From assembly GCA_963657675.1 (NCBI GenBank), contig CAVKMV010000003.1, positions 1,059 to 65,058 on the forward strand: DNA of 64,000 nucleotides. Direction: 5' to 3'. Numbering within the stretch: the first letter of the stretch is position 1; each line of letters starts with the position of its first letter. Source of the DNA: Ruminococcus intestinalis. GTDB lineage: Bacteria; Bacillota; Negativicutes; Acidaminococcales; Acidaminococcaceae. Made by a program: the position numbers and the translations under genes. Positions 8,781-12,555 of the stretch are shown one piece after another. The notes under the pieces were generated by a model. The model had not been told where the DNA came from, did no database searches, and was given only the letters and a program-made list of their open reading frames with translations.

Positions 8781-10058
8781 TTATGCTGCAGTCGGGAAGA
8801 ACGGCCATACGATAGGAATAACAATGATTGCTACTACCATGCTGACTACTACCAAGCCGCCGCCGCATTTTACAAAGTCCATGAATTTGTATTTGCCAGG
8901 GCCAAGCACCAGGGTGTTCGGAGGAGTACCTACCGGGGAAGCGAATGCACAGCTGGAGGCAATCAGGATTGCCATCAGTACAGCCTTCGGGGATGCGCCC
9001 ATCTGAGCGGACAGGGCAATACCTACCGGGCAGAGCAGAGCCTTAGAAGCGGTGTTGCTCATGAACTGGGTGAGGATAACTGCCAGGCCGAAGAGCACTG
9101 CAGTTACCAGGTACGGAGACGGGTTGCCGCCCATCATGTTTACAGTAACCTCGGCAATGAGCTTGCCGGCGCCGCTGGTGTTCATAGCGGTTGCTACAGG
9201 AATCATGCCTGCGAACAGGAAGATGGTGATCCAGTCGATGGAGTTATAGGCTTGTTTCTCAGTGATGCAGCCTGTCAGTACGCACAGTACCGCTCCGACA
9301 ACAGCAGCCAGTTCCAGAGGAACGATGCTGGTTGCCATAGAACCGATAACGCCAAGCATGATAACAGCGCAGATCATTTGCTTTCTGGGAGTGGTGTTGG
9401 TAGCATCAATTTCCTGCTCAACCTCTACAGACTCATCAGTCTTTGCTTCCGGCAGGATGTACTTGCCTACAAACATCATGTAGATGATACCTGCGATGGT
9501 GATAGGAATACCGATGTAGGCATATTCGAAGAAGCCAAATTGCAGCTCCGGCATACCTGCTGCCTTCAGAGCAACGTTTGCCAGGATGTTAGGCGGGGTA
9601 CCAATCAGGGTGCAGGTGCCGCCCAGGCCGGCTGCGAAGGCCAAAGGCATCAGTTGACGGGACGCAGACAGCTTAGCCTGTGCGCAGATACCCATAACAA
9701 CGGGGATCAGGCAGGCAGTGGTACCAGTGTTAGACAGGAAGGCGGACATAGCAGCCGCGATTACCATAATACCAAACATCAGACTGTTTTCATTGGTACC
9801 AAAGAGCTTAACAACAGCGCCGCCAACCTTTTGAGCAAGGCCGGTATAGAACATAGCAGCGCCAACGACGAACATGCCGCCGAAAAGAACTACAGTAGAA
9901 TCTGCAAGGCCCAGGAAAATCTGATTTTCCGGAACAAGGCCCAGCGCACTGCAGGCTACGGCAGCCAGGACTGCGGTCATAGCCAGCGGAATCAATTCAG
10001 TTACGAATAACAGTGCAACTACTGCGAGCAGGATCAAGCATTTAATTGCTGGTGTCAT
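8781..10058 (-). CDS. SLC13/DASS di-/tricarboxylate permease (paralogue 1)
   Basis: Two SNT motifs (LSNTG, MSNTA) and two GTPPN motifs, many transmembrane segments. Confidence 0.92.
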   Translation of the reverse strand: MTPAIKCLILLAVVALLFVTELIPLAMTAVLAAVACSALGLVPENQIFLGLADSTVVLFGGMFVVGAAMFYTGLAQKVGGAVVKLFGTNENSLMFGIMVIAAAMSAFLSNTGTTACLIPVVMGICAQAKLSASRQLMPLAFAAGLGGTCTLIGTPPNILANVALKAAGMPELQFGFFEYAYIGIPITIAGIIYMMFVGKYILPEAKTDESVEVEQEIDATNTTPRKQMICAVIMLGVIGSMATSIVPLELAAVVGAVLCVLTGCITEKQAYNSIDWITIFLFAGMIPVATAMNTSGAGKLIAEVTVNMMGGNPSPYLVTAVLFGLAVILTQFMSNTASKALLCPVGIALSAQMGASPKAVLMAILIASSCAFASPVGTPPNTLVLGPGKYKFMDFVKCGGGLVVVSMVVAIIVIPIVWPFFPTAA

Positions 10059-10074: not shown

Positions 10075-10272
10075 TTATTTCTTCTTAAATAGGTTTACAT
10101 ATTGGAATGTGTTGACAAAAAGCCTGCCATCCTCGCCACGATGAGGGAAGACCTTGCCTTCCTTCTTCCTGTTTTCGATAGCGCGATAGTAAAACTTCTT
10201 ATCTACCTGTTTCAGGTACTCCCGAATCTTAAAATCTTCTTTTTCATCATTAATGATAAGTGCAATGTCCAA
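10075..10272 (-). CDS. 65-aa hypothetical microprotein (KVFPHxGE family)
   Basis: TTG start with RBS AAAGGAG; 16 nt upstream of the SLC13 gene; motif shared with 10675..10854. Confidence 0.75.
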   Translation of the reverse strand: MDIALIINDEKEDFKIREYLKQVDKKFYYRAIENRKKEGKVFPHRGEDGRLFVNTFQYVNLFKKK

Positions 10273-10325
10273 AACCTATCAGCTCCTTTCCCGTTCCTTT
10301 TGGAGAGTGCCTTTCACTGTTAGAG

Positions 10326-10380
10326 ATTATACAACATATTCCAAAATAATAAAAATACCTAGTTGGAATGAAAGTTATAT
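10326..10380 (-). promoter_or_regulatory. Promoter P1 with conserved upstream activator box
   Basis: TATAAT at 10326-10331; TTCCAA box 31 nt upstream. Confidence 0.6.
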
Positions 10381-10428
10381 ACTTTTTAATATAAATTAGT
10401 TACTTAATTCTATAGCACACAATTGATT

Positions 10429-10483
10429 ATTATACTACAATGAGTGCTTTAATAAAAATACCTTGTTGGAATATAAGTTATGA
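10429..10483 (-). promoter_or_regulatory. Promoter P2 with conserved upstream activator box
   Basis: TATAAT at 10429-10434; TTCCAA box 31 nt upstream. Confidence 0.6.
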
Positions 10484-10501
10484 CTATACCGCATATTTTT
10501 C

Positions 10502-10568
10502 AAAAACAAAAAGCCAGTGTATGACGATGCACAAGGAAGGTACTATAACAACATCGTCACACGCTGGC
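10502..10568 (-). terminator. Terminator with a 17-bp stem and 22-nt anti-SD loop
   Basis: GCCAGCGTGTGACGATG / CATCGTCATACACTGGC followed by TTTTTGTTTTT. Confidence 0.7.
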
Positions 10569-10591
10569 AAAATTAATATATCTTAATCAGC

Positions 10592-10669
10592 TTACAGCAG
10601 AATATTCTTCAAGCATTTAATGTAGCGTTCTCTATCTAGTTCTCTTAAGTAGTTAATTACGAAGCTCAT
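10592..10669 (-). CDS. 25-aa microprotein MSFVINYLRELDRERYIKCLKNILL
   Basis: Manual translation; ATG lies 5 nt after the upstream stop; aligns without gaps to YLKQVDKKFYYRAIEN of 10075..10272. Confidence 0.5.
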   Translation of the reverse strand: MSFVINYLRELDRERYIKCLKNILL

Positions 10670-10674
10670 GTCCC

Positions 10675-10854
10675 TTAGCCTCTTTTCAATGCCTTTACAG
10701 ATGCGTCGCTCAATTTGCAACCATGAATTCTTTTAATGAAGTCAAAACAATGCTCGCCGCAATGCGGGAAAACCTTTGCTGCTTCCTTACGTTGTTCACA
10801 CAAATGTTCATACAAGCTAACTTCCTTTTCGACTGCTTTCTTTGCTTCAGCCAT
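10675..10854 (-). CDS. 59-aa hypothetical microprotein (KVFPHxGE family)
   Basis: ATG after RBS AAGGAGAG; EQRKEAAKVFPHCGE matches ENRKKEGKVFPHRGE. Confidence 0.75.
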   Translation of the reverse strand: MAEAKKAVEKEVSLYEHLCEQRKEAAKVFPHCGEHCFDFIKRIHGCKLSDASVKALKRG

Positions 10855-10936
10855 GATGTTTCTCTCCTTTTTCATTCCTTAATAGTCAATATTCTCAATT
10901 TGCGTCCGCATAAAGCCTCTACCTTTATGCACGTAC

Positions 10937-10991
10937 AGTATAACAGATATTGCTTAATAAGAAAAATATCGCCTTGGAATGAAAAATATGA
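10937..10991 (-). promoter_or_regulatory. Promoter P3 with conserved upstream activator box, divergent from lysR
   Basis: TATACT at 10937-10942; TTCCAA box 31 nt upstream. Confidence 0.6.
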
Positions 10992-11153
10992 CATTTGATT
11001 ATTTCTTTTTTAGCATTCAGTAGTCTATAATATCCTTGATTATTGAAATATCGTAACCAATATGGTACACTAAATATATTATACCTGTATTTAGTACATT
11101 GTACCTTTTATAGTAGAATATGGATAGTAGTAGTAGTTGGAGGTCTACAACGT

Positions 11154-12147: not shown

Positions 12148-12184
12148 AAAATAAAAACACCCACGGCACTGCCACGGGCGTTTT
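12148..12184 (-). terminator. Terminator of the two-peptide transcript
   Basis: Minus strand AAAACGCCCGTGGC-agt-GCCGTGGGTGTTTTTATTTT. Confidence 0.7.
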
Positions 12185-12218
12185 CAGAAAACCACAATTT
12201 GCATTTTGCTGTCACCTG

Positions 12219-12275
12219 TTAATGGATAAAGTAAAAGTTCATTTCGTATAATGCTTTAACAAATTTCTCTAACAT
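12219..12275 (-). CDS. 18-aa peptide MLEKFVKALYEMNFYFIH
   Basis: Manual translation; perfect RBS GGAGGTGA 5 nt upstream; paralogous to the neighbouring peptide. Confidence 0.7.
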   Translation of the reverse strand: MLEKFVKALYEMNFYFIH

Positions 12276-12294
12276 CTTCGTCACCTCCGCTTAC

Positions 12295-12354
12295 TTAGTG
12301 AACCATATACCATTTAAAGCTGCACAGAGTTTCAACAAACTTTTCGAACGTCAT
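12295..12354 (-). CDS. 19-aa peptide MTFEKFVETLCSFKWYMVH
   Basis: Manual translation; RBS AAGGGAAG; first ORF after the promoter. Confidence 0.65.
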   Translation of the reverse strand: MTFEKFVETLCSFKWYMVH

Positions 12355-12406
12355 CAGTCTTACTTCCCTTCTGCTTGAATTTGGGTTATACCCTTAACAT
12401 GCCTTA

Positions 12407-12435
12407 AGTATAACACCTTGTGACATTTTTGTCCA
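12407..12435 (-). promoter_or_regulatory. sigma70 promoter of the peptide pair
   Basis: TGGACA-N17-TATACT with extended TGn; a GACA-N4-TGTC palindrome (12422-12433) overlaps the -35. Confidence 0.65.
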
Positions 12436-12520
12436 GTAGGGTCTTTTTATGTCCCACTAGTATGTAAAATCTGCGTAAAGCCTTGCAGCATGCGGTTTTA
12501 CATGGATTTTACATTGCCTG

Positions 12521-12555
12521 AAAATAAAAGAGCTACAGAAATTTTTCTGTAGCTC
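12521..12555 (-). terminator. Terminator of the lon-engB-abrB transcript
   Basis: GAGCTACAGAAA / TTTCTGTAGCTC stem followed by a U-tract on the minus strand. Confidence 0.7.

Follow-up and report, generated by a model that had tools for sequence, protein, structure and literature searches.

Results

The window, by which we mean the whole 64,000-nucleotide stretch analysed here, belongs to a genome of 2.03 Mb that is 92% complete (G000, hereafter the source genome). On its minus strand, a short peptide unit is flanked by a gene for an abrB-family membrane protein (PF05145) and a convergent LysR gene. Microprotein 1 (19 aa) is encoded at 12295..12354, with an SD at about 12363-12370, and microprotein 2 (18 aa) at 12219..12275, with an SD at about 12281-12288. 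Both are preceded by a sigma-70 promoter on the same strand, TGGACA-17-TATACT (12407..12435; -35 at 12430-12435, extended -10 with TG at 12407-12412), which is kept in relatives. The unit closes with an intrinsic terminator (12148..12182, minus strand), a GC hairpin with a U-tract that folds at about 12182-12156; it was seen by folding and is absent from the list of a simple terminator scan. The predicted transcript is therefore about 250 nt long. Upstream, the intrinsic terminator of the abrB-family gene (12530..12555, minus strand) insulates the unit. An earlier note on this DNA had proposed a stand-alone transcription unit with these ORFs, each with a ribosome-binding site and ending in His-stop, and with this promoter, hairpin and insulating terminator; all of these parts are present, which supports the proposal. 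Elsewhere in the window, an AT-rich stretch of ~1 kb (10100-11150) lies between a DASS/CitMHS transporter gene (8781-10058, minus strand) and a divergent LysR gene, and could hold a small gene and LysR sites.

A further short ORF, preceded by an SD of its own, was missing from the inventory of two peptides. Six codons and a stop at 12184..12204 of the minus strand (SD 12213-12217) abut the terminator, and this mini-ORF is kept in position and variable in sequence. Among 64 units examined, a terminator was found in 61, and in 56 of these 61 an ATG frame of 4-13 codons ends at it, 46 times with an SD; for control genes of the source genome the corresponding figures are 16/257 and 2/257. The stop codon swaps among TAA, TGA and TAG. 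The mini-ORF may protect the 3′ end, or may be a third product.

The two main peptides align without gaps (7/18 residues identical, BLOSUM62 score 41, as high in 0/100,000 shuffles) and their DNA is identical at 33/57 positions, in line with the earlier view that the DNA has diverged under selection on the peptide sequence. This selection is purifying: pN/pS lies between 0.04 and 0.19 (0.17, 0.09, 0.04 and 0.19, one value for each of four orthologue groups that together include 55 of 88 distinct CDS, calculated over the last 17 codons from non-independent pairs), and synonymous sites have diverged (pS 0.44-0.83). Off-frame ORFs taken by regex were left out here and from the motif counts below (n = 104 copies).

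One alternative is a dual-function RNA, in which the transcript has an additional or even principal role as RNA, or the mini-ORF and 3′ region form a separate effector. The transcript length matches SgrS, SR1 and AzuCR, and the enrichment of mini-ORFs at the terminator would suit such a role. However, the divergence at synonymous sites argues against it, the transcript folds no better than its shuffles (z -0.11), and no Rfam match came near its gathering score, the two chance-level matches falling far below. We consider this reading improbable.

The conserved peptide pattern consists of helically spaced hydrophobics in positions 1-11, a hydrophobic tail and His as the last residue. The C-terminal motif that had been pointed out is mostly kept, with a terminal His in 92/104 copies and YxxH (Tyr at position -4) in 72/104, but it is not invariant, since Tyr or His is missing from whole lineages. 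Cys occurs in 14 of 53 distinct peptides. The recurrent Tyr and His would be expected of RiPP precursors cross-linked at these residues by an enzyme encoded elsewhere, as the earlier note had also suggested; the lineages that lack one or the other speak against this, no modifying gene was recognised in the loci inspected, and a search of the source genome for the SPASM domain found none. A RiPP origin thus appears very unlikely.

The N-terminal half of the peptides is amphipathic (helical hydrophobic moment 0.45-0.74) and conserved, as is the tail, whose variants are lineage-dependent. PSM operons have a comparable layout, and tandem paralogues each with a ribosome-binding site, a stand-alone transcript and an amphipathic N-terminal helix could all belong to membrane-active peptides made in carbon plenty, be it a PSM-like surfactant, a leaderless bacteriocin or a type I toxin. 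On the other side, net charge is near neutral and variable in sign (-3 to +3), the tail is non-amphipathic in most variants, and the unit is accompanied by neither an exporter gene nor an immunity gene, so we give this possibility little credence. An antisense promoter-like site inside ORF2 was rejected as a conserved part of the unit because it occurs in 6/64 units only, a count that leaves a trans-acting antitoxin RNA aside.

Pfam and NCBIfam gave 0 matches at E up to 1 for 5/5 in-frame extended forms of 21-26 aa. An exact look-up matched 0/5 of these forms, a weak result since the queries were not the true 18-19-aa forms. The literature that we covered, with subscription journals and sORF catalogue tables mostly outside its scope and an unnamed entry therefore possible, describes neither the peptide family nor a CggR regulon in these bacteria. 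Both ORFs are real, and the peptides constitute a real, undescribed family of microproteins of 18-19 aa.

Relatives of the peptides occur in 71 of 140 genomes of the bacterial family of the source, in 13 of 21 genera. A 38-peptide profile splits these genomes cleanly, with E < 1e-4 in 65/140 and only E > 0.04 in the remainder; in genus g35, six further genomes have a divergent peptide ending in Glu, which was found via the operator described below or with wider profiles. In a class-wide draw, 36/67 family genomes matched, and the 233 genomes of other Negativicutes yielded no relatives, since the single weak match (E 0.009), from another family, falls within a frame of 466 aa and was treated as noise. 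The profile search across Negativicutes that had been advised thus finds the peptides family-wide and, among the genomes searched, confined to one bacterial family. The exact operator and promoter pattern matched 66 times in a collection of 185,579 species, and a family peptide follows in 64 cases; the other two, in non-family records, precede an unrelated gene that we take to be guaB-like and were dropped from the 64-unit counts. Among metagenomes, with 102 pattern matches in all, 78 of 80 loci examined carry the peptide and the two misses are interrupted at contig ends; viral contigs gave 0 matches to the pattern.

Most records with the unit bear the title Phascolarctobacterium, Succiniclasticum or Acidaminococcaceae/Acidaminococcales. 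Five carry other titles (L183, Escherichia; L203, Segatella; L230, Bacteroides; L234, Bacteroidaceae; L241, Duodenibacillus) and hold Phascolarctobacterium-type units, so that their titles are probably wrong or their bins mixed.

Copy number varies, as the earlier note had asked to be checked: among the 64 units, 26 have one peptide copy, 36 have two and two have three. The source genome has no further paralogues by motif scan, and the profile returns only its two known matches. In one locus (L015 1599-1967, from G017), three intact copies are accompanied by a fourth that is cut short by an early stop and lacks an SD, which shows that copies arise and are lost.

The whole set of operator, promoter, peptides and terminator moves jointly and has at least five kinds of neighbourhood. 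The unit follows engB-abrB in one and dinB in another; elsewhere it faces a ksgA-like gene, lies ahead of a secA-like gene or adjoins a glpQ-TRAP-glpK cluster (the names engB, ksgA and secA are presumptive). This joint movement across differing contexts indicates that the unit is self-contained and not an attenuator. A leader peptide of the attenuator type was also rejected on the grounds that the downstream gene is convergent (LysR) here and in many other contexts, with no co-directional operon.

The region upstream of the peptide ORFs is more strongly conserved than the peptides themselves, with the pattern GGGAC-N7-GTCC-N4-TGGACAAAA in relatives. At the unit in the window it forms a predicted CggR-type two-part operator (12420..12455, minus strand; half-sites 12440-12455 and 12421-12435, 20-bp period) with the core GGGAC-N7-GTCC-N4-TGGAC, and its right half overlies the -35 and the spacer of the peptide promoter. 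The GACA-TTTT-TGTC element at 12422-12433, previously taken for a ComR box, is indeed present but makes up only the right half of this longer operator, and its perfect symmetry is lost in relatives; the box is better read as a CggR-type operator half. The layout is that of the 45-bp B. subtilis CggR operator (PMC11229326). The only PF04198 gene of the source genome is cggR, which matches 8R3G at E 2e-79 and lies upstream of gap and pgk; it conserves R37, R38, R49 and R52, named as the base readers of CggR (PMC11229326).

Upstream of cggR itself, a GGAC repeat at 21 bp is found in 38 of 39 distinct regions (50 taken, 45 excisable). The cggR-gap-pgk operon of the source genome (G000:C51:4093-4130; L086 1172-1210) has this 21-bp period as well; the family cggR sites differ in this respect from the peptide unit, the other regulon sites and B. 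subtilis, where the period is 20 bp. A scoring matrix trained solely on cggR upstream sites gave, in the source genome, 38.8 for cggR, 26.3 for an ABC transporter, 24.6 for a TRAP transporter, 23.1 for the peptide unit and 15.6 for the next locus. The best reversed-genome control reached 22.0, barely under the peptide site, which makes the single-site score of the latter modest, and above a score of 10 there were 93 controls against 46 real matches. With controls so near and so numerous, the case for the operator rests on conservation and not on the matrix score by itself.

All but two of the 71 peptide-positive genomes contain cggR (69/71), and completeness of these two is 86% and 89%; 44 of 113 cggR-positive genomes are without the peptide. 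In genus g35, where cggR is patchy (7/19 genomes), a g35-specific profile finds peptides in 6/7 cggR-positive versus 0/7 cggR-negative genomes tested, five further cggR-negative genomes lying outside this comparison; related genomes are not independent in any of these counts. In genus g32 the operator is about 100 bp further upstream, and only an upstream site is evident. At three loci of the Glu-ending lineage (L191, L223 and L239), a further CggR-like site lies some 120 bp ahead of the peptide promoter. From its sequence, the peptide unit is very probably under CggR control.

A CggR-type site at the promoter makes the peptides look like internal regulators of carbon metabolism and not like quorum signals. 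The earlier note had led with RRNPP/ComRS pheromones, which the CggR-type box and the domain searches do not support as the main reading: Rgg_C is found in 0/98 family genomes, neither RNPP_C nor TPR_12 was found in the source genome (92% complete; divergent receptors could escape), and the search for XRE-TPR (Rgg/ComR) regulators that it recommended revealed no RRNPP-type regulator there. HTH_3 has ten matches in this genome, none with an XRE-TPR layout; nine lie in frames of at most 138 aa and the tenth is presumably ParB-like. The earlier remark that no receptor or modifying enzyme adjoins the unit holds in the loci inspected, where none was recognised.

The peptides might still be secreted signals read by a receptor unlike RRNPP, with CggR merely setting the timing. 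In size and in their aromatic-rich tail they are like the precursors of streptococcal pheromones, and tail variants that differ by lineage would suit signals. SHP/Rgg, ComS/ComR and LCP systems (PMC13361665, PMC7564271, PMC12998947) likewise have hydrophobic ORFs of about 20 aa, SHPs being called hydrophobic in the first of these papers. However, SHP and LCP genes typically adjoin their regulator, whereas the peptide unit has a CggR-type operator, no adjacent regulator or receptor gene in the loci inspected and no HTH-TPR receptor found. Moreover, conservation covers the N-terminal half in addition to the tail, whereas drift would be expected of a leader that is cleaved off. We regard secreted signalling as unlikely.

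CggR-type sites also precede a TRAP transporter with glpK, opposite a divergent glpQ-like gene, and an ABC transporter that is weakly similar to 4R72 and P5PA (E about 1e-17), of which 4R72 is presumably the sugar-phosphate binder AfuA. The TRAP binding protein, whose gene adjoins glpQ and glpK, has 4N6K and 4PFB as its best solved relatives, with diglycerol-phosphate and glycerol phosphate as their ligands (PMC11668362). In the source genome these loci are a LacI-glpQ / TRAP-glpK cluster (G000:C9:1509-8309) and the conserved ABC transporter (G000:C20:8815-12960), and CggR-type operators at both point to glycerol-phosphate scavenging. CggR-like sites are further found in several genera before a type-2 G3P-oxidase/GlpA-like gene, with scores > 20 in 2/21 regions and of 10-14 in three; the site upstream of the corresponding gene of the source genome (G000:C60:7065-8528, L294) scores only 6.0, and the protein itself scores below the NCBIfam cut-off. 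Sites before fucO and a Ugp-like ABC transporter are limited to single lineages. In the peptide-negative genus g17, a CggR-like site (L286, G048:C1:2517824-2517851) lies upstream of another gene, which we take to be glmS-like. These sites suggest a glycerol-phosphate-to-DHAP regulon, of which the peptides would be one output.

Discussion

We hypothesize that the peptides are CggR-repressed, DHAP/FBP-induced intracellular microproteins that regulate carbon metabolism, a reading that we consider somewhat probable. Coding selection, the operator match, a shared regulon and co-occurrence form its basis. CggR sitting over the -35 would repress the peptide transcript, and a rise in triose or hexose phosphates, either DHAP from glycerol-3-phosphate breakdown or FBP, would release it; in B. 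subtilis both DHAP and FBP release CggR, and DHAP works at lower concentration. The microproteins would then be made alongside the products of the gap operon and the proteins for glycerol-phosphate uptake, joined in several genera by the G3P oxidoreductase. With a near-neutral amphipathic N-terminal helix and a hydrophobic, His-ending tail, the peptide is most likely intracellular or at the inner membrane, where it may bind a protein of carbon metabolism and tune flux, as AzuC does with GlpD and SgrT with PtsG. Micro-regulators of a transporter were the third option of the earlier note, and it is this option, widened to enzymes, that the data support. The repeated duplication of the peptides fits a stoichiometric binder.

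Three kinds of candidate target can be named. The G3P oxidoreductase is a tentative one, of low probability: it is encoded in 59 of 62 carriers that are at least 85% complete (the misses include one 100%-complete genome, and the gene is split in one further carrier), in 93 of 116 family genomes and in 0/16 genomes of the peptide-negative genus g17, and also occurs in other peptide-negative genera. A sugar-phosphate-type ABC transporter is a doubtful candidate; its permease is present in 61/62 carriers and in 105/116 genomes overall, and being near-universal it offers no discrimination. Equally doubtful is CggR itself or an enzyme of the gap operon, and the rest of the probability falls to unlisted core proteins. 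GlpK was rejected as a general target since 23 of 71 carriers lack glpK. PTS EIIC was rejected likewise: it was not found in 34 of the 62 carriers with a completeness of 85% or more, so that a target like PtsG would not be general.

Among known small proteins, AzuC of E. coli (28 aa) binds GlpD at the membrane (PMC8915982). The peptides share with it a stand-alone, short, carbon-controlled transcript, a predicted amphipathic helix and a link to glycerol-3-phosphate, a likeness read from sequence; they are shorter, in tandem, without a family match to it and with CggR as predicted regulator. SgrT/SgrS of enterobacteria (PMC12310071) is likewise a small protein induced via a sugar-phosphate-sensing regulator, which there is SgrR and not CggR. 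SR1P and SR7P of B. subtilis are Firmicute small proteins as well and bind GapA or enolase, both gap-operon enzymes (PMC12310071). They differ from the peptides in length (39 aa) and show no family match to them, and SR1 is reported to be repressed by CcpN/CcpA during glycolysis, which is the reverse of what is predicted for the peptide unit.

The regulator itself invites a closer comparison. In B. subtilis (PMC11229326) and Caldicellulosiruptor (PMC8579813), as far as the available text of both papers goes, CggR is likewise a SorC-family repressor upstream of gap-pgk, and the likeness extends to a GGGAC-based two-part operator and the same four base-reading arginines. The regulon described in those texts is the cggR-gap operon, whereas here it would also take in a microprotein operon as well as genes for taking up and degrading glycerol-phosphate. 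A bolder and improbable version is that Negativicutes that ferment succinate have taken on CggR as their glycerol-phosphate/DHAP sensor, driving a microprotein that feeds back on CggR or is exported, broadcasting the sugar-phosphate state, and with the terminator ORF of 5-12 codons as a third working part.

Phascolarctobacterium and its relatives are major converters of succinate to propionate in gut and rumen, and P. faecium is reported to make hardly any use of carbohydrates (PMC7568257). The source genome has a cluster for a fructose-type PTS EII, HPr and EI (G000:C15:18706-21945, L243) although the group is described as hardly using sugars, and EIIC is found in 18 of 32 other genomes of its genus.

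A half-palindrome like that of ComR boxes can belong to a CggR operator. For an unannotated, family-wide microprotein, the predicted regulator, the predicted inducer and the short list of targets make the proposal directly testable. The peptide unit suggests an enlarged CggR regulon with glycerol-phosphate scavenging in these bacteria, and would add a case from the Negativicutes to the few known microproteins that regulate carbon metabolism.
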